Positions 2,589 to 54,668 of a DNA stretch of 64,000 nucleotides are shown one piece after another. The first letter of the stretch is position 1, and every line of letters begins with the position of its first letter. Origin of the DNA: Pseudomonadota bacterium (GTDB lineage: Bacteria > Desulfobacterota > Binatia > Binatales > Binataceae); NCBI GenBank assembly GCA_021323675.1, contig JAJPKP010000071.1, positions 64,969 to 128,968 of the forward strand, written 5' to 3'. Both the position numbers and the translations under genes were made by a program. The notes under the pieces were generated by a model. The model was not told where the DNA came from, did no database searches, and saw nothing but the letters and a program-made list of their open reading frames with translations.

Positions 2589-3629
2589 TCAGGCGTCGAG
2601 CCGGCTTGCCCATTTGCGCGCGGGACGCCGTTCCCATCCGCGCTTGTGGTAGCCGTATGCGGCGATCAAGGGAACCGCGATCGACGCCTCGCAATACACC
2701 ATCTGCTCGAAGGTCGTATCGACCTTGCCCCAGCTTGACGCTTCCTTGAGGGTCGAGCCCGACAGCGCGCCGTCGCGGACATCAGCCACCGTCACCTGGA
2801 TCGCGTATTTGTGCATCGGAACGTCGTGGCCGAGAATTTCGGCGGCGACGACGATGTCTTGGGCGAAGTTTTTGGGCACGCCGCCGCCGATCATGAGAAG
2901 CCCGGTCTCGTTGCCGAGCACCTTGATACGGGTGAGCTCGTGAAAATCCTGCGCGCTGTCGATTGTAACCCTGGCGCCCTTGGCTCGCGCCGCCTGATGC
3001 GCAACCAGGCCAAAGCCCGCGGAACAATCGCTGAAGGCCGGACAGAAGATAGGGACGTGCTCGCGATAGGCTTCGAGCACGATGCTGTTGTCGGCGCGGG
3101 CTCCCGTCTCGGCGAGATACTTACCCATCTCGCCCACGAACTCCCGCGATGAGTATGGGCGCGGTTCGAGCTGATCGGCGATTTTCCTGATCGTTTCGTC
3201 GCAAATGCGAAGCTCGTCTTCGTCGATGAGGGTGTCGTAGATGCGATCGATGTGAAGTTCGCGCAGCACTCCGTCCTCCAGCCCGGCGCGCAGGCGTTCG
3301 TCGGCGATATAGTGGCGGAAGCCGAGCGCCTCGAAGAAGTCCTGATCGACGATATTCGCGCCGGTGCTCACGACCGCATCGACCATCCGGTTGCGGATCA
3401 TGTCGGCGAACACTTTCTTGAGACCCGCGCTGACCAGCGATCCGGCGAGGCACAGGATGACGGAGCAGTTCGCATCGCGGAGCATCCGGTCGTAAATTTC
3501 GGCGGCCCGCGCCAGGTCGCGCGCGCTGTACGCCATATGCTTCATGGCTTCGACCAGCGGCACAACGTCGTGGCGGGTAATATCGACGTGCTGGATGGTT
3601 TCGGAGAGATATTCAGATTTTGACGGCAT
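2589..3629 (-). CDS. deoxyhypusine synthase homologue (DHS-like)
   Basis: 346 aa with DHS-family motifs (GANIVDQD, IGGGVPKNF) and the conserved catalytic-lysine context EASSWGKV. AGGAAGGA Shine-Dalgarno before ATG 3629; 24 nt downstream of the ECF T-component gene. Confidence 0.85.
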   Translation of the reverse strand: MPSKSEYLSETIQHVDITRHDVVPLVEAMKHMAYSARDLARAAEIYDRMLRDANCSVILCLAGSLVSAGLKKVFADMIRNRMVDAVVSTGANIVDQDFFEALGFRHYIADERLRAGLEDGVLRELHIDRIYDTLIDEDELRICDETIRKIADQLEPRPYSSREFVGEMGKYLAETGARADNSIVLEAYREHVPIFCPAFSDCSAGFGLVAHQAARAKGARVTIDSAQDFHELTRIKVLGNETGLLMIGGGVPKNFAQDIVVAAEILGHDVPMHKYAIQVTVADVRDGALSGSTLKEASSWGKVDTTFEQMVYCEASIAVPLIAAYGYHKRGWERRPARKWASRLDA

Positions 3630-3653
3630 CGCGTCCTTCCTGTCTTCTGCCTG

Positions 3654-4439
3654 CTATCCGGGCGTGATAGCGCCGTAGCCGGTGTAATAGATGAGAAAAT
3701 ATCCGGTCGCGATGGCGAACAGAGTGAGCCCCGCGACCACGTCCGCAGGCATCACAGGATACTCGATCAAGGTTGTGGGATTATTACGCAGGCCGAAGCC
3801 GCGCGCCTCGAGCGCCATCGCCATGTTGTTCGCCCTGCGCAGGGCAGACATAAAGACCGGAATAACCACGGTCACGTAGCGGCGCATCCGCTCGAAAAGC
3901 CCGCCCTTCTCGAAATCGTAACCGCGCAGCTTCTGCGCATCGACAATCGTCATCGCGGAGTCGATGAACAGCGGCACCAGCCGGAACGCGAGCGAGATCG
4001 CGAAGCCGACGCGGTAGGATACTCCGAGCTTGGCCAGGCCGACGGTGAACTCTTCCACCCGCGTGGTCGAAAGGAACAGCACCGAAGCGCCGAGTAATTC
4101 GGCAAGTTTGATTCCCCGGCCAAGCCCGTACACGAGCGAGCCGCGGCTGACGTGGACGAACGGCAGGTTTATCAGGGGCGTGCCCTGCCGATAGAAGAAA
4201 AGCCAGACGATGGTGGTCGTGAAGACGAGGATTATGAAGTACCAGCGATAGCGGTAGAAGTTGCGCCACGAACCGGTAAGCTGCGCAACCCACAGCATGA
4301 AGATGCCGATCGGCAGAAGCGCGATCGGATTGTCGACCCAGTAGACCGACCAGAACATCACGAACAACGCGATCACCTTGACGGTGGGATGCAGCCGATG
4401 AACGAAGGTGCCGCGATCGAGATAGAGCTGAATCGCCAT
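3654..4439 (-). CDS. ECF transporter T component (EcfT/CbiQ family)
   Basis: Polytopic membrane protein of the CbiQ/EcfT family. Start moved to the internal ATG (MAIQLYLDRG...) that forms an ATGA overlap with the stop of the upstream ATPase gene at 4439-4441. Confidence 0.8.
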   Translation of the reverse strand: MAIQLYLDRGTFVHRLHPTVKVIALFVMFWSVYWVDNPIALLPIGIFMLWVAQLTGSWRNFYRYRWYFIILVFTTTIVWLFFYRQGTPLINLPFVHVSRGSLVYGLGRGIKLAELLGASVLFLSTTRVEEFTVGLAKLGVSYRVGFAISLAFRLVPLFIDSAMTIVDAQKLRGYDFEKGGLFERMRRYVTVVIPVFMSALRRANNMAMALEARGFGLRNNPTTLIEYPVMPADVVAGLTLFAIATGYFLIYYTGYGAITPG

Positions 4440-7046: not shown

Positions 7047-7820
7047 GTGATCGACAGCCACGTTCATCTCGACGCTGACCAGTATGCCGACCCATCAGGC
7101 GCAATCAAGCGTGCGGTTGAAGCCGGTGTTACAGCGATGGTCGCGCCCGGAACCGGGGGAGCATCGAATCGCCGCGTGATCGAACTGTCCCGCCGATATC
7201 CAAAGGTGGTCTATGCCGCCTGCGGGTTCCATCCGGAGCGATTCGACCTGACGGATGCGGACCTGGAGGAGGCCCTGGAGACGATTCGCCGCGAGAGAGA
7301 CTCGCTATGCGCCGTGGGCGAGGTCGGGATGCCCTGGTATGGCGACCGGGCCCGCGATCCGCGCCTTATCGCGCGGGCAAGGCGGGTCCTGGAGCGATGC
7401 GCGAGCGCCGCGGTCGAAGCTGATTTGCCGATGATCATACATGCGCCTCACGACAGCGCGCGCGAGGCGCTCGGGATTATCAAGGAGGCCGGCGTGCGGA
7501 TGGCGGTTTTTCATTGGCACAAGTCCGACGATTCGACCACCCGCGCTATCCTCGATGCGGGCTATTTCATTTCGCTAACACCGGAAGTCGCCTACCGAGA
7601 TCGCGACATCCGGCTGGCCAGGATGGTGCCGCTCGAAAGCATGCTGCTTGAGACGGACGGACCGTGGCCGTATCGAGGTCCTTTCGAGGGACGCGCGACT
7701 GAGCCGGCGATGGTACTCGACGCGGCGGGCGCGGTTGCCCGCGCGCTAAGCCTTGAGCGCGAGATGGTGGGCGCGATGACGACCGCCAACGCCCGAAAGC
7801 TGTTCCGCATCGCGACCTGA
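7047..7820 (+). CDS. TatD family hydrolase
   Basis: 257 aa. IDSHVHLD metal-binding motif and TatD-family architecture. GTG start. Confidence 0.85.
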   Translation: MIDSHVHLDADQYADPSGAIKRAVEAGVTAMVAPGTGGASNRRVIELSRRYPKVVYAACGFHPERFDLTDADLEEALETIRRERDSLCAVGEVGMPWYGDRARDPRLIARARRVLERCASAAVEADLPMIIHAPHDSAREALGIIKEAGVRMAVFHWHKSDDSTTRAILDAGYFISLTPEVAYRDRDIRLARMVPLESMLLETDGPWPYRGPFEGRATEPAMVLDAAGAVARALSLEREMVGAMTTANARKLFRIAT

Positions 7821-35061: not shown

Positions 35062-35265
35062 TCAGTGCAACCGCTGCGAGCGAGGCTCCGGCATTTCACT
35101 TAACGCCTCCGAAAGCATCGCTGCCATCTCGCGAAACGCGCCTTCGTCAAGCCGCATCGTGGTATAGCCGACGGTAAGATGAACCGCGCCGCAGTCGCAT
35201 ACATCGACGGAAAACGATGGACGAGCGGCCAACCTGCGTCGCCGGCAACCACTGCTCTCGATCAT
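35062..35265 (-). CDS. small hypothetical protein
   Basis: 67-aa ORF in the correct orientation within the operon; no other support. Confidence 0.25.
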   Translation of the reverse strand: MIESSGCRRRRLAARPSFSVDVCDCGAVHLTVGYTTMRLDEGAFREMAAMLSEALSEMPEPRSQRLH

Positions 35266-35285: not shown

Positions 35286-36137
35286 TTAGAAAAACCAGCT
35301 ATTCTCCGAAGATGGGCCGAACAGAGCGCCCACGTAGCGTTCCAATTCGATGTTGAACTTCATGATTACCCGGTCGGAGTTTGGCGTCAGGCCAGACCCG
35401 GGACCGACGCTGTACTCGATGCCGTTGGGAAGCGCGCCCCACAGGACCGGAAAGATGTAGTGCTGCTGGTCCCGCAGTGGATCCGTATCGTCGATAAGGC
35501 CGCATCCGCCGTAAAATTCCACGCCCGGCGACAAATACTTGAGCCATCGGTAATAGACGGCGTTGCGGTAGCCGAACTCGAAGCCCTGGTTGCGCCCCGC
35601 GCCGGAGAGCACCTTCTCGAAGACCGGGTTGGCAACCAGCGAGAGGCGGCCGAAGTCCTTCTCCATAATGGGGCGAAGCTCGAGTTCGAGGTTCGCATCG
35701 TCGAACTGCGGTGACTTGTGCCATTCCAGCTCGAGGTACCATCCGAGGTTCACCGGCAGAGTTTCTTCGTCGAAGAGCCTCCCGCGCAGCCGATATTTCG
35801 AGCCCGAATACCAAAGGCCCTGGCCGCGCGGCAGCGCCAGATTCAGATAGGCCGCGGCTTCGATCCGGTCGGTAAGCCCGTACGTCAGTTCGTACGCGTT
35901 AAACCAGGTGCTCTGACTGGGAAATTGGGCGCCGGTGCCAGCGTCGGGAGTGCTGTGGCCGTTTGCCACCACCGCGTTGAGCGTCTCGAGTTCGACAACC
36001 CCGCGCTGCTCGGTCGCGTACGGATAGACTTCAAATTCCCAGGGATCGATCTGCGCGTACGCGGATCCCGCGACGGCGGCACAGGCCGCAATCACCCCCG
36101 GCATCATCAACAACCAAGAGATACGTCGTCCAATCAT
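35286..36137 (-). CDS. outer-membrane beta-barrel protein (family unassigned)
   Basis: Signal peptide (AACAAVAGSAYA), alternating amphipathic strands, and a C-terminal aromatic residue (…NSWFF). Confidence 0.6.
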   Translation of the reverse strand: MIGRRISWLLMMPGVIAACAAVAGSAYAQIDPWEFEVYPYATEQRGVVELETLNAVVANGHSTPDAGTGAQFPSQSTWFNAYELTYGLTDRIEAAAYLNLALPRGQGLWYSGSKYRLRGRLFDEETLPVNLGWYLELEWHKSPQFDDANLELELRPIMEKDFGRLSLVANPVFEKVLSGAGRNQGFEFGYRNAVYYRWLKYLSPGVEFYGGCGLIDDTDPLRDQQHYIFPVLWGALPNGIEYSVGPGSGLTPNSDRVIMKFNIELERYVGALFGPSSENSWFF

Positions 36138-36589
36138 CGACCTGACTCATCGGCCGCCAGCTCCGCCGCAATCCATCGTTGAAGCCGATCGCGATCGGCC
36201 GGTCCAAGCCGCGAGGACGGATGCATCGCGCGGTACGGCCATGGCGGCATCGCCTCCCCGCGCAACGCGCGATCCATCCACTTCAGTTTTCGCGCGCGCG
36301 TCGCGGGAAAATAATCGCTCCATTGCGAGAAATTGATTTGCCTTCGTCCGGCGTTGACGTCATGAGCCACCAGCCACGAGAGCGGCGCGATCCTGGTGTA
36401 CCAGGGCCATTGCGTCTGGTTGGAATGGCAGTCGTAACAGGAGCGCCGCAGGGTCTGCTCAACCTCCGGCGGCGCCGCGACATCTCCCCGGGACGGCGGG
36501 TTCGCGATTCGCACCGGCACCAACTGCATCGCGAGAATCCCAACGACCAGCCCGGCCGCAATCGCAAACTTGTAACTGCGAGGCACGAC
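36134..36589 (-). CDS. haem-binding-domain protein with CxxCH motif (Haem_bd/PF14376-like small cytochrome)
   Basis: TM anchor followed by RRSCYDCHSNQTQWPWY. The start is probably GTG 36589, because the ORF-track start at 36661 would overlap the upstream gene. Confidence 0.5.
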   Translation of the reverse strand, partial: VVPRSYKFAIAAGLVVGILAMQLVPVRIANPPSRGDVAAPPEVEQTLRRSCYDCHSNQTQWPWYTRIAPLSWLVAHDVNAGRRQINFSQWSDYFPATRARKLKWMDRALRGEAMPPWPYRAMHPSSRLGPADRDRLQRWIAAELAADESGR

Positions 36590-36596
36590 TTTCAGG

Positions 36597-36944
36597 CTAC
36601 CGGGCGACGATGTTTCCCACGGGCACGTCCTGATGGAAATCGTCGTAAAAGTCGTAGTCACCGGGACTCAGCTCGGGGAGACGAACGGTAATCGTCTCGC
36701 CTGGAGAGACCACCTTTTCGCGATTCAGCTTGAAGCTCTCGAACTCGATGGTTTCATCGCTCGCGTTGATGACCTTGATGCTGAGCTTCTGCCCGGCTGG
36801 CACGGTCAGGCTGCTGGGGGTGAACTGATGGTTCTGAAAGCGAATCTCGACGGGCTCGACCGCGAGTGCGCGGACCGAGGAGCAATCGAACAGCATCGCA
36901 AACGAGACAGCAGCGGCAAGGATGAAGAGCTTTGAGCGAGACAC
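36597..36944 (-). CDS. secreted cupredoxin-like domain protein
   Basis: Signal peptide (VSRSKLFILAAAVSFAMLFDCSSVRA|LA) from GTG 36944, followed by a beta-sandwich-like domain. The ORF-track start at 37010 would read through the palindromic operator. Confidence 0.45.
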   Translation of the reverse strand: MSRSKLFILAAAVSFAMLFDCSSVRALAVEPVEIRFQNHQFTPSSLTVPAGQKLSIKVINASDETIEFESFKLNREKVVSPGETITVRLPELSPGDYDFYDDFHQDVPVGNIVAR

Positions 36945-36962
36945 GATGGGCGGCCCTCGGAT

Positions 36963-36987
36963 GATATTGAGAATGATTCTCAATATC
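36963..36987. promoter_or_regulatory. 25-bp perfect palindrome resembling a Fur box (GATATTGAGAATGATTCTCAATATC)
   Basis: 12-bp arms around a central G. It is an AT-rich island in GC-rich DNA, made of GATAAT-like hexamers comparable to the canonical Fur box GATAATGATAATCATTATC. It lies 19-43 nt upstream of the proposed start of the cupredoxin gene. Confidence 0.5.
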
Positions 36988-37717
36988 CTGAAAGCCGCGA
37001 ACCTTGTCAACCCCCTTCCCCGCCGGGATTCAGTTCAACCCCGATTCGCTCTTTTTATCGAAACGCGAGAATTGCGCCCATCCAATGGATTGGTAGCGTG
37101 TGTGCGCGCGCCCGTCGCGAAGTTCGAAAATGCCGGACAGGGTCCTTGCGCGAACGTCTCGATGCGGCGCGTCCTGGCGGGCTCCGGCAGTTCCATCCCG
37201 CTTGCGTCCAATGGGATTATCGAACCGGGCCGGTCATTCACCCTGAACGACCATTTGCATCGCATGCACGTGTAGCGGTACGGCTGCGGCGCGCGCCATC
37301 CCGATTTGGGCAAAGTCTCGATGACGAAGTTGTGGCGAGTCTCGCGCGCCGGAAACCCGTTGCCGAAGTTCCTGAGATGCGCCGCGTAAGAGACGCTAGC
37401 CGCCCGGCTCCTGCGCTCACGCCAGAACTCCTGGATGCGAGTCACCGTGGCCGCAAGCGAGACGGCTATAGGCCCGATCGATGCTCCAGGTTTTCCGTAG
37501 GCTTCCATCGCGGATCTCCCTGGATCCGACAACAGCAAGCAGCGCGCCGAATGCTGGATCGCGTTCGCGGACTTCGCCGCAGGGCCGGTTCATGCGGCAG
37601 CAGACCGCAATAAGGCGAACAAGAACGGGGATTTAATTCGATCGCCGCGCCATGGACAGAGCCTTATGGCCGCTTGTGCGCGCGGCGCGGGAGGGCGATC
37701 TCTCGATGCAAAATGAA

Positions 37718-51253: not shown

Positions 51254-51286
51254 CGTCGCACCTCTGAGATCGATATTCAGATCGGC

Positions 51287-53674
51287 TTATCGCGGCGGCG
51301 GGTTCGTGAACGGCAATTCCCACCCGATTCCGCCATAGACCGCGCGCCTGGGACCGTATTGCGTCGCAAAGACTCCGATGCCGGTGCCGTTGCGAATCTG
51401 GTAGATGTGGTCGAAGAGATTCACGACCGCGCCTCTCACCACGAAGGCGCCCGCGCCGGGAATCTCGAACCGCTTGTTGATTCCTACGTTAACCTGCACG
51501 TAAAAGGGCATGTTCCCGGTATTGGCGAACCCGCGCCGCAGACCGCTTCCGTACAGGCCGTCCATCGTCAGCATCCAGCCCTTCATGCTGTAGGCCGCTC
51601 CCGCCGAGGACGTGAAAGTCTGATCGTGATCGAGAAACACGTAGCGATCGCTTATGTAGTGCAGCTCGTTCTTGTCGAAGTTGAACTGGCCGGACGTGAT
51701 CTGATTGCCCTGCGCAACGCTGTAGGTGAAATTGCCGTAGGCGCTCAGATTTTCATGGCTGTATGACGCGGTGGCCTCGACGCCGTAGTTGCGGCCCTTG
51801 TTGTAGTTGAAGTTCTCGTAGATAAGCGCGGGCCCGAACTGGCCTTCATCGATCACCTGGCTCGCCTTGCGAAAGTACGCGTCGACGCCAAGATTGAAAC
51901 GCGGCACGATCTCCTGCGCTATTCCCGCATCGAAGTAGTGGTCGCGTTCGACGGTCGGCGTGCTGTTGGCGCCGCTCGGCGGAGCGCCCGTCGTGTTTTC
52001 AAACAGTTTGATCGAAGTGGAAGGAACCATCTCGGTATCGGGCGGTGTGAAATAGCGCGCGTAGCCCGCGTGCAGAGCGGTGCGCTTGAATGGAGTGTAG
52101 GTGATGCCAACGCGCGGACTGGCCTGATCGGCGCGCACCAGGCCGTCATACAGATCGAATCGCACGCCGTAGTCGATCGTTACGGGCTCCAGCGGCTTCC
52201 ATTCGTCCTCGACGTAGCCGCTGTAGTACCAGGCGGTGATCGCGGTGTTGTCGGTGATCGAAATGGGCACCGTTTGAGGCACGCCGCCGACAATCGGAAA
52301 GGTTGCTTCATGGTTGTCGATCTCGGCGCGCTCGCCCCAAAAGGAACCGCCGAACCGGAAAACGTGCCGCGCGACGCCTCGATACGCCATATCGGTTTGC
52401 AACCCGCTGGCCCAATCGCTGCGAAAGGCCTTCGACGCCGCGCCATTGAAGATCAGGTCGCCATCGTGATCGGGATAGAACGACACCGTGGAATAGCGGC
52501 TGAATGGCGCGATCTGGTAGTCGAAGTTCCGGCCTATCGCGCCCTGCAACGCGAAGATCCCAAAGTAGTTCTGCTCGAACTGGCGCTCGTTGACGTCAGC
52601 CGATGGGTAGATGGGAACACCCTTCAGCGTGAACACCTGCGGCTGATTGGGATTGGCCGGGATGTGAAAGTAATTGATCGCCGTGCCCGTGATCAGGCTG
52701 AGGCGCGTCGTCGGATTCAGAAAGTAAGAGAAGTATCCGAAGCCCGATCCCTGATTGGTGTCATCGTTGATCGGCGTGGGTCCGGGGGTGGGCGGTTCGA
52801 GTCCGCGATTGCTGCCGAAATACTGACCCGTCATGAAGTAGCTGAAATTCCCCTTCGAGCCGCCGTACTCGAAGCTCGGCTGTTCAGTGCCGCGTTGACC
52901 GCCCCGAAACTCCACCGATTGCACGTCGTCCTGAAGGCCGTCTTTGGTCTTGATATCAACGATCCCCGCGGTCCGAAGCCCGTACTGCGCCGGCAGGACG
53001 CCGGTAAGCAGACTGATTTCGCGTGCGAAACGCGGCGTGAGTATCTGTCCGAATTGTGTAACGCCCTGCGGCAGTAGAATTCCGTTGAGGCGATACTGCA
53101 GATTGCCGTGATCGCCGCGCACATGAATTGCCCCGTAGGAGTCCTGAACCACGCCCGGCGCCTGAAGGAGCACCTGGTTGAGGGAGCTGTTGTTGCCCTC
53201 AGGGAGCTGCTGAATCGCCTTTTCGGTGAAGGTGTAGCTGCTGCCTCCGGTAGTTGGCGATAAACGGTTGCGCGCCCGATCCAGCCGGCGGGCGACGACG
53301 GGCAGGCTCAGCAAGGCCTGCGATTGCATCGCGATTTCAAGCGCCCTGGAGCCTTTCGCGCTCACTGTCGCGATTGCAACCGCGGTCTTGAAAGCGGGTT
53401 TGTTTACGACCACGGCGAAGGTTCCCGCCGCCACGCCGTGAAACACGAATTTGCCGCTCTGGTCGCTGGTCGTCCGCGCCACCGCTCGTCCATCGCGCGC
53501 CTGCAAAACCACCGCTGCGCCATCGATCGGGCGCCCTAGGGCATCCTTTACAATTCCCGTCACGGTTGCCCTCGCGCTCCTGGGACTTTCCGCCGCGCGA
53601 GCAACCGATCCGATCGCGGCCGCCTGGATTATCCAGAGGGCGGCCGCAACGACTCCAAACCGCCGCATCATCAA
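51287..53674 (-). CDS. TonB-dependent receptor with N-terminal carboxypeptidase-regulatory-like domain
   Basis: Signal peptide, CarbopepD_reg-like domain, plug, and a 22-strand barrel ending in an aromatic residue. Confidence 0.85.
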   Translation of the reverse strand: MMMRRFGVVAAALWIIQAAAIGSVARAAESPRSARATVTGIVKDALGRPIDGAAVVLQARDGRAVARTTSDQSGKFVFHGVAAGTFAVVVNKPAFKTAVAIATVSAKGSRALEIAMQSQALLSLPVVARRLDRARNRLSPTTGGSSYTFTEKAIQQLPEGNNSSLNQVLLQAPGVVQDSYGAIHVRGDHGNLQYRLNGILLPQGVTQFGQILTPRFAREISLLTGVLPAQYGLRTAGIVDIKTKDGLQDDVQSVEFRGGQRGTEQPSFEYGGSKGNFSYFMTGQYFGSNRGLEPPTPGPTPINDDTNQGSGFGYFSYFLNPTTRLSLITGTAINYFHIPANPNQPQVFTLKGVPIYPSADVNERQFEQNYFGIFALQGAIGRNFDYQIAPFSRYSTVSFYPDHDGDLIFNGAASKAFRSDWASGLQTDMAYRGVARHVFRFGGSFWGERAEIDNHEATFPIVGGVPQTVPISITDNTAITAWYYSGYVEDEWKPLEPVTIDYGVRFDLYDGLVRADQASPRVGITYTPFKRTALHAGYARYFTPPDTEMVPSTSIKLFENTTGAPPSGANSTPTVERDHYFDAGIAQEIVPRFNLGVDAYFRKASQVIDEGQFGPALIYENFNYNKGRNYGVEATASYSHENLSAYGNFTYSVAQGNQITSGQFNFDKNELHYISDRYVFLDHDQTFTSSAGAAYSMKGWMLTMDGLYGSGLRRGFANTGNMPFYVQVNVGINKRFEIPGAGAFVVRGAVVNLFDHIYQIRNGTGIGVFATQYGPRRAVYGGIGWELPFTNPPPR

Positions 53675-53777: not shown

Positions 53778-54167
53778 TTAGAGCGAGGCGGGCGGAGCGC
53801 GGCCGAAGTGATCTTCGAGCGCCATTTGCGCCGGCTCGATCGCATCAACCGCGGCCGGCGCGTGCGCGAGAATCGGCGTCGAGACAGACGCCTGAGAAGG
53901 AGCCGCTACCACCGGGATGTGGCACGCGAGACAAAGCGCGCAAAGCTCGGACGCCGCGGCCAATTCGGCCTGCGCCGCGTTCTGCGATCGCGAGAAGCCG
54001 TGAAAATGCGCGGCTCCCGCGAGCTGAACGAAAACAATCAGCGCGGCCGCGAAAACGGCCAGCGCCGGACGGCGCGGCGATCGTTCGGACTGGATGTTGG
54101 TATTCAGGCGCCTAAGCCTCTTGCGCAGAGTGTCTGATTTCGTATCGCAAAGCAATTGCAAGTGCAA
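53778..54167 (-). CDS. small membrane-anchored Cys/His-containing protein (DUF2946-like)
   Basis: TM segment followed by AAHFHGF...CALCLACH. The start is uncertain. Confidence 0.35.
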   Translation of the reverse strand: MHLQLLCDTKSDTLRKRLRRLNTNIQSERSPRRPALAVFAAALIVFVQLAGAAHFHGFSRSQNAAQAELAAASELCALCLACHIPVVAAPSQASVSTPILAHAPAAVDAIEPAQMALEDHFGRAPPASL

Positions 54168-54194
54168 GTAGATTGTGCTTTTCTCGGGCCTGCG

Positions 54195-54668
54195 ATGAGT
54201 ATTCCATCCGCCGAACGGAACAAAGGGGGAAATCCACCGCCGGCCCGGCTCTCATCCGCCACGCAAGACGCGCGAACGGTCCTCAAAGGCGTGGGACTGC
54301 GCGGAACCGCCGCGCGCCTCGCGGTCCTCCGGCACATGCTCGAGACGCCGGGGCCCCTGAGCCACTCCGAAGTGTATGCATCGCTGGAAAGCGGCGGTTT
54401 TGACGCCGCGACCATCTACCGCAACCTTATCGAACTGACTCGCGTCGGCGTCCTGTCCCGAGTCGACCTCGGCGATCACATCTGGCGCTTTGAAAAGAAA
54501 CCAGCTCCGCGTAAGCGCCGCATAGCGCATCCCCACTTCGTATGCGACGAATGCGGCAGCGTAGCCTGCCTTGATGAAGGCGATGTGAAAATCTCGGGCA
54601 CACGCGGAATCCGCAGCGTCGGCGAAGTATCGAGCATCACGGTGAAAGGCCGCTGCCGAAAGTGCTAG
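54195..54668 (+). CDS. Fur-family transcriptional regulator (Fur/Zur/PerR type)
   Basis: Winged HTH plus an HPHFVCDECG...C metal site. Start set at ATG 54195. Confidence 0.75.
   Translation: MSIPSAERNKGGNPPPARLSSATQDARTVLKGVGLRGTAARLAVLRHMLETPGPLSHSEVYASLESGGFDAATIYRNLIELTRVGVLSRVDLGDHIWRFEKKPAPRKRRIAHPHFVCDECGSVACLDEGDVKISGTRGIRSVGEVSSITVKGRCRKC

Follow-up and report, generated by a model that had tools for sequence, protein, structure and literature searches.

A conserved palindrome with the features of a Fur-type operator in front of a cupredoxin operon of the Binataceae

The 64,000 nt of contig JAJPKP010000071.1 analysed here (assembly GCA_021323675.1; hereafter the window) come from a member of the Binataceae and carry, at 36963..36987, a 25-bp perfect palindrome. 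It lies in front of a three-gene operon that encodes a secreted cupredoxin, a haem-binding protein and a putative outer-membrane channel. We propose that this palindrome is the operator of an iron-responsive repressor of the Fur family, most probably a canonical Fur encoded outside the window, and would give this reading a probability of roughly 78%. It draws on the conservation of the palindrome in front of orthologous operons, on its overlap with the promoter, on its likeness to known Fur boxes and on the recurrence of the same box at other iron-uptake genes. The identity of the binding protein, the dependence on iron and the direction of regulation are what we infer from these sequence comparisons.

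The forward strand at this site reads GATATTGAGAATGATTCTCAATATC, that is GATATTGAGAAT-G-ATTCTCAATATC, and in the orientation of the genes the element is GATATT GAGAAT C ATTCTC AATATC. The initial annotation had described it as a perfectly self-complementary, AT-rich island in GC-rich DNA, and both parts of this description were borne out: the repeat finder (repeat I20, assigned to neither strand) returned two arms of 12 nt that are 100% complementary around one central nucleotide (12-1-12), and the GC content of the palindrome is 28% as against 62% for the window. No other perfect palindrome of this size (arms of at least 12 nt, spacer of 0-1 nt) is present in the window. When the window was simulated 100 times with a first-order Markov model the mean number of such palindromes was 0.04, and at least one occurred in 4 of the 100 simulations. 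By itself the palindrome is merely moderately improbable, and the case for a functional element therefore rests on its conservation.

Conservation is the decisive evidence that the palindrome is a real element. It was assessed in 80 cupredoxin-encoding loci, one genome per species, which together with the window amount to 641,805 nt, and a box was scored wherever the core TGAGAATNATTCTCA was matched with at most 2 mismatches. A box lies directly upstream of the orthologous cupredoxin gene in 64 of the 80 loci, mostly 0-45 nt from the estimated start, and all 66 core matches in the 641,805 nt are found directly upstream of a cupredoxin gene, with 0 elsewhere. The most conserved part of the operator is the core 7-1-7 inverted repeat TGAGAAT-N-ATTCTCA (36968..36982, likewise without strand): of its 14 arm positions, 10 show no change at all or a change in just one of 65 sites. 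Read in the direction of the genes, the sites have the consensus GATATTGAGAATCATTCTCAATATCA. With a weight matrix derived from the conserved sites, the window site scored 50.5 bits and the runner-up position in the window 2.4 bits, and scanning with this matrix detected no second box in the window. The changes that do occur in the arms are uncompensated, with position 8 being G in 13 sites and its partner, position 6, being C in 1, which indicates a protein-binding site in DNA rather than an RNA hairpin or stem. One locus (L024), the only one with a tandem box, has two copies upstream of its cupredoxin gene, at 3950-3964 and 3972-3986, 22 bp apart.

The palindrome is also part of a promoter. 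A promoter scan identified a sigma-70-type promoter on the minus strand with a -35 hexamer, TTGACA, at 37005..37010 and a -10 hexamer, GATATT, at 36982..36987, the latter being the first hexamer of the palindrome. This arrangement (TTGACA-17 nt-GATATT) has 10 of 12 matches, and 1 such site was found as against 0.1 expected in shuffled sequences. The -35 element is itself conserved: TTGAC occurs no more than 45 nt upstream of the box at 64 of 65 sites and in 0 of 65 control windows placed 300 nt further upstream, and the gap between TTGAC and the box falls in the modal range of 15-17 nt at 37 of the 65 sites. Since the -10 hexamer lies within the palindrome, the operator would span both the -10 and the expected transcription start. 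A protein that covers the -10 and the transcription start represents the usual geometry of repression through promoter occlusion.

The position of the element relative to the first gene depends on the start codon that is chosen. The GTG at 36944, from which the palindrome lies 19-43 nt upstream, agrees with the N-termini of 24 homologues and with the public gene call for a 99%-identical protein (P0001) encoded on a 147-kb JGI soil contig, and a Shine-Dalgarno-like GAGG can be read from the sequence 10 nt upstream of it (36955..36958, minus strand); in most orthologous loci GGAGG or GAGG stands about equally far from the gene. The longer open reading frame (ORF) begins at 37010 with a TTG that is the first half of the -35 hexamer. 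The initial annotation had favoured the GTG and had held the start at 37010 to be wrong, and on both points it is supported. In two public gene calls for homologues, P0051 and P0079, the N-terminus is extended and includes hydrophobic tracts, among them IITLNI and ILIIILNL; the extensions resemble a translated AT-rich operator region, which would be the same error as the start at 37010.

Comparison with known operators places the site among Fur boxes. It matches 16 of the 19 positions of the Escherichia coli Fur consensus GATAATGATAATCATTATC, 13 of the 15 of the Bacillus subtilis 7-1-7 Fur box TGATAATNATTATCA and 17 of the 19 of a Xanthomonas campestris Fur consensus, AATGAgAATcATTctCATT, which was derived from Fur-regulated TonB receptor genes of that organism (PMC1790865). 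In Enterococcus faecalis the very sequence of the core, TGAGAATGATTCTCA, is given as the Fur box of the iron ABC transporter operon EF3082-85, and a fur mutant shows 12-18-fold derepression of the genes of that operon (PMC6056675). With the classical Fur box the site shares an AT-rich dyad of GATAAT-like hexamers, an overlap with the -10 and a position upstream of iron-uptake genes. It departs from the classical box in having G for T at the fourth position of its half-sites (GAGAAT versus GATAAT) and in a symmetry that reaches a perfect 12-1-12, which amounts to four hexamers. No Fur regulon in the Binataceae was found in the searched literature.

The same box precedes a second kind of iron gene in this family. 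Five contigs that lack the operon and have a tetranucleotide composition like that of the window (r of at least 0.91, the range of the operon-bearing contigs) carry the box 12-40 nt upstream of a gene for an FTR1 permease of ~280 aa, and the sole taxon name attached to this FTR1 family is Candidatus Binataceae. Three distinct Binataceae FTR1 loci, which were fetched by protein identity and not by motif and include loci of GCA_035279875.1 and GCA_037025245.1, all have a box that scores 27-30 bits and precedes the ATG by 24 nt, with a TTGACA further upstream. As the box is found at both the cupredoxin operon and FTR1, at least two separate iron-related units stand under it in the Binataceae.

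A wider sample was taken from metagenomes and consists of stretches that contain the exact 19-mer ATTGAGAATCATTCTCAAT, of which there are at least 119, arbitrarily selected and ranging from 26 to 71% GC. The cupredoxin operon is present in 12 of them. From the non-operon stretches 125 proteins were collected, by crude ORF calling, whose ORFs start no more than 300 nt to either side of the box, and an equally large control set of 125 ORFs was drawn from the same contigs at distances of 1.5 kb or more from the box. Among the stretches listed, the Pfam matches of the box neighbours are FTR1 (11), iron-type solute-binding proteins (8), FeoB (6), FUR (6), Rrf2 (6), FeoA (3), Plug (3), FecCD (2), ZnuA (2) and HemS (2); all 6 of the box-adjacent fur genes are on low-GC contigs. 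None of FTR1, FeoB, FeoA, FUR and Rrf2 is among the top 25 families of the 125 distal control ORFs. The motif is thus associated with iron-uptake genes, the point that the initial annotation had named for testing: FTR1 lies near the box in Binataceae, and in metagenomes FTR1 and others do so but are not among the top families of the distal controls. The interpretation of the palindrome as a Fur box in that annotation also agrees with the sequence-based tests described so far, that is the consensus matches, the overlap with the -10, the conserved loci and the iron-uptake neighbours.

Several points weigh against a canonical Fur as the binding protein. The cognate Fur is assumed, and a tblastn search of the window and the 80 loci with E. 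coli Fur found only the divergent paralogue that is discussed below. The site also matches 15 of the 17 positions of the iron control element (ICE) bound by Irr (TTTRGAAYNRTTCYAAA, TTTAGAA-N3-TTCTAAA), which is a similar dyad, and it fits the loose RirA-box pattern TGA-N9-TCA, so that the motif alone cannot name the protein that binds it. In one orthologous locus (L043) a box-like site, GATATTGAGAACAAGTTTCAATTTC at 3062-3086 (18 bits), precedes a ferritin-like gene (3339-3815; Pfam Ferritin, E = 2.4e-35), which separates it from the cupredoxin gene, and ferritin-type storage genes are normally not repressed by Fur. Finally, there is kinship within the metagenome sample: 9 of the FTR1 proteins form one family, and the 6 Rrf2 proteins belong to one SAR11-like IscR lineage of 31% GC.

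One alternative is that the palindrome is the operator of another sensor of the Fur family, such as Zur, Mur, PerR or an Irr-like protein, in which case the operon would respond to zinc, manganese, peroxide or haem. The operators of Fur-family proteins resemble each other, and both the ICE match and the 2 ZnuA genes among the box neighbours could be accommodated in this way. We nevertheless regard it as unlikely, as the site has 9 of 15 matches to the Zur box TCGTAATNATTACGA and 11 of 15 to the PerR box TTATAATNATTATAA, both below the 13 of 15 for B. subtilis Fur, the box neighbours are overwhelmingly iron transporters, and both the first gene of the operon and the co-regulated permease come from iron-specific families. 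The ICE is like the proposed operator in being bound by a Fur-family protein and in controlling iron genes, but the invariant G at the second core position of the window site and its GATAT flanks suit Fur boxes better. Furthermore Irr has been described as an alpha-proteobacterial regulator (PMC1698941), whereas the host here belongs to the Binataceae.

It might also be thought that the regulator is the Fur-family protein encoded in the window itself, at 54195-54668, to which the initial annotation had drawn attention. Its assignment to the family stands (Pfam FUR, E = 7.1e-11), it keeps the ATxYR recognition-helix motif and two CxxC pairs, and its gene is on the same contig at a distance of 17 kb, but as the protein that binds the palindrome it is very improbable. 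Among NCBIfam models the highest score that it reaches is 35.5 bits, where the cut-off is 220, and it falls far below every Fur, Zur, PerR and Irr cut-off, with the Irr models giving 17-19 bits against cut-offs of 150-170. It has ~10 close homologues, as compared with hundreds for the cupredoxin and FTR1 families, and its next relatives are found in Myxococcota at ~45% identity. In all contexts examined the gene is divergent from a gene for a CarboxypepD_reg-TonB receptor and an ExbB-ExbD-TonB cluster, and in one locus (L330) the homologue is followed by a ZIP permease gene. Just upstream of the gene is a strongly conserved element of ~45 bp (54141-54190), present also in L326, L328, L329 and L330, which reads GTATCGCAAAnnnATTGCArGTGCAAG..ATTGTGCTTTTCT (also written GTATCGCAAA...ATTGCArGTGCAAG...ATTGTGCTTTTCT) and is unlike the cupredoxin box. 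The weight-matrix scan found no box upstream of 54195-54668 or of the adjacent TonB receptor gene (51287-53674). In view of the homologues, the genomic context and the distinct upstream element of its gene this divergent paralogue was rejected as an unlikely cognate regulator; it is possibly a local, Zur-like regulator, and the element at 54141-54190 may be the unusual operator of a Zur-like local regulon. A weak match to the core of the cupredoxin box, TGAGATCGATATTCA at 51265-51279 (14.8 bits), lies just past the end of the TonB receptor reading frame, at a position where ExbB follows in related loci, and is probably due to chance.

A regulator from outside the Fur family, for instance an Rrf2-family protein of RirA or IscR type reading TGA-N9-TCA, would be consistent with the fit to the RirA-box consensus and with the 6 Rrf2 genes that adjoin the exact 19-mer among the metagenome stretches listed. 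These six genes represent a single lineage of close relatives, however, and six fur genes carry the box upstream too. Conservation extends beyond the TGA and TCA triplets to the full 15-19 bp, and the core has the exact sequence of a Fur box at which derepression in a fur mutant has been recorded, all of which makes an Rrf2-type regulator highly improbable. The idea that the palindrome is no repressor site at all, being a mere AT-rich part of the promoter or, in the mRNA, a hairpin of the 5' leader, can be dismissed almost entirely: its first hexamer does double as the -10, and a hairpin could fold if transcription began upstream of the palindrome, but a -10 accounts for 6 nt and not for 25 conserved symmetric nt, the same 19-mer is found at many unrelated iron-gene promoters of 26-71% GC, and the hairpin was rejected on account of changes in one arm that are uncompensated in the other.

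If the palindrome is the operator of a canonical Fur, as we favour, then Fe(II)-Fur dimers would bind the 7-1-7 core when iron is sufficient, and the GATAT/ATATC flanks, which extend the site to four hexamers, could provide room for a second dimer. Bound Fur would exclude RNA polymerase from the promoter. When iron is scarce Fur would leave the DNA and the three-gene operon would be transcribed.

Boxes of this type were also encountered in other settings. Six SAR11-like marine contigs of 30-33% GC (L222, L234, L259, L272, L298 and L303) carry the exact 19-mer upstream of a conserved IscR-type Rrf2 gene; given the alpha-proteobacterial host these could be Irr/ICE sites and not Fur boxes. An exact 17-mer, TTGAGAATCATTCTCAA, is present in at least 120 viral contigs (L082-L201) of 25-67% GC, where its flanks are often further palindromic. 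On impression it is commoner there than chance would allow, which suggests that phage genomes may carry Fur-type boxes.

The genes behind the palindrome are all on the minus strand. Gene 1 (36597..36944) encodes, from its GTG start, a secreted cupredoxin of 115 aa of the Cup-II (FtrB/EfeO) type (Pfam Cupredoxin_1, E = 3.5e-27), and the taxon names given for its homologues are Candidatus Binataceae or Binatia throughout. The closest solved structure is that of Brucella FtrB (8VUK, E = 5.5e-13), a periplasmic Cup-II cupredoxin of the Fe(II) uptake system FtrABCD for which E84, E86 and E93 have been proposed as iron ligands and D118 and H121 as copper ligands (PMC11966278). The motifs that hold these ligands, EFES..(R/K)EK for iron and DDFH for copper, align with EFES..REK and DDFH in the window protein, where they are invariant in 25 homologues. 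Gene 2 (36134..36661) is an ORF of 175 aa, called publicly with a start at 36586 and a length of 150 aa, and encodes a membrane-anchored Haem_bd protein (Pfam, E = 4.5e-36) with a CYDCH (CxxCH) motif; a Haem_bd protein is present in 62 of the 80 loci. Gene 3 (35286..36137), which begins within the last 4 nt of gene 2, encodes a secreted protein of 283 aa from an unclassified family. Where the initial annotation had spoken of an operon for haem binding and an outer-membrane barrel, the haem-binding part holds for gene 2 but not for gene 1, which encodes a cupredoxin and not a haem protein, and the barrel of gene 3 stays putative. A possible fourth gene, taken from the public annotation, is an ORF of 67 aa directly downstream of gene 3 (35062..35265); in 7 of the 80 loci tblastn found a match in the corresponding place, and its membership of the operon is uncertain.

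The gene for the 283-aa protein adjoins the cupredoxin gene in 79 of the 80 loci, with identities of 48-80%. The protein has no Pfam match even at E = 1, and a profile of 21 sequences found no match in the PDB at E = 10. Comparison by hhalign with the neighbouring Phenol_MetA_deg outer-membrane protein gave a probability of 0.5%, and a single-sequence AlphaFold model had a pLDDT of 29 and was unusable. Only the signal peptide and the C-terminal ...WFF point to the outer membrane as its putative location. Homologues adjoin the exact 19-mer in two metagenome stretches from which the cupredoxin gene is absent, one at 3216-2449 with the 19-mer at 3289-3307 (L247) and one on a contig of 43% GC, from an organism of much lower GC, with the box at 7268-7286 (L261), and this unclassified family may therefore stand under the same box in other architectures.

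A connection between the operon and FTR1 is suggested by loci from other lineages. The 64-kb window contains no FTR1 gene. In nine of the 80 loci (L053, L058, L059, L061, L063, L065, L070, L071 and L073) a region homologous to FTR1 lies directly upstream of the cupredoxin gene, at about 300-2300 nt and on the same strand. These nine loci are non-Binataceae, belonging to other Binatia or to metagenome-assembled genomes (MAGs) labelled Syntrophobacteraceae or Verrucomicrobiia; they have no box directly upstream of the cupredoxin gene and are mostly without a separate Haem_bd gene. In the three that were examined by Pfam (L058, L070 and L073) the region is a gene for a cytochrome c-FTR1 fusion of 648-676 aa, upstream of which the Binataceae matrix found no good box, and this gene would there stand first in the operon. 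The co-occurrence of the cupredoxin, the 283-aa protein, a haem part and FTR1 in these loci indicates that the components travel together, and the fusion and gene order in other lineages combined with the shared box link FTR1 to the cupredoxin operon. The Binataceae appear to have a split form of this module, in which the haem protein is kept in the operon and FTR1 is encoded elsewhere behind the same box. The operon would then supply those parts of an oxidase-dependent, FTR1-type iron-uptake module that lie in the periplasm and further out, with a presumed role in transport.

The switch itself is conventional, a Fur-type operator being a well-known type of element. It is nevertheless, as far as the searched literature shows, the first concrete regulatory signal of iron homeostasis found for the Binatota. 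The Binatota are a widespread uncultured soil phylum. The weight matrix and the two target units can be used for mapping the regulon in complete MAGs, and an apparently recurring annotation error is corrected, namely the extension of the cupredoxin ORF into the AT-rich operator region by some gene callers. Of greater interest is a by-product, the variant FTR1-type module, in which an FtrB-like cupredoxin, a haem protein and the 283-aa protein are tied to FTR1; it provides the hypothesis of a variant iron-uptake pathway and points to poorly known iron transport. More tentatively, and at somewhat less than even odds, the box may mark a new envelope-spanning architecture for oxidase-dependent iron uptake, made up of a new family of small outer-membrane channels (represented by the 283-aa protein), an FtrB-like cupredoxin, FTR1 and a c-type haem carrier that is either a separate Haem_bd protein or a domain of the permease fusion. 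In it the haem protein would stand in for P19/FtrD, and the Binataceae units, being unlinked, would be joined only by the shared Fur box.

The nearest known systems are FtrABCD of Brucella, Bordetella and Burkholderia and EfeUOB, which perform oxidase-dependent iron uptake of the FTR1 type. As in these systems, there is a Cup-II cupredoxin with the acidic iron-site and DDFH motifs, and an FTR1 permease would be co-controlled with it in the Binataceae or encoded in the same operon in other lineages. The module differs from them in having the 283-aa protein and a haem part, either the CxxCH protein or the cytochrome c domain of the FTR1 fusion, instead, and in that the permease gene of the Binataceae is unlinked from the operon. 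The periplasmic copper-iron protein P19/FtrA, the polyferredoxin FtrD, the M75 protein EfeO and the peroxidase EfeB were all absent from the genes called around the operon or FTR1, and the system is therefore filed only as related to FtrABCD and EfeUOB. A second comparison is with cFTR1, known from the P19-cFtr1 system of Campylobacter and from cyanobacteria, the cyanobacterial form having been reported to be induced by iron starvation. The permease belongs to the same family as that in the cytochrome c-FTR1 fusions, but here it is accompanied by a cupredoxin and the 283-aa protein, and in the Binataceae the haem domain stands apart from the permease, as a Haem_bd protein of its own.

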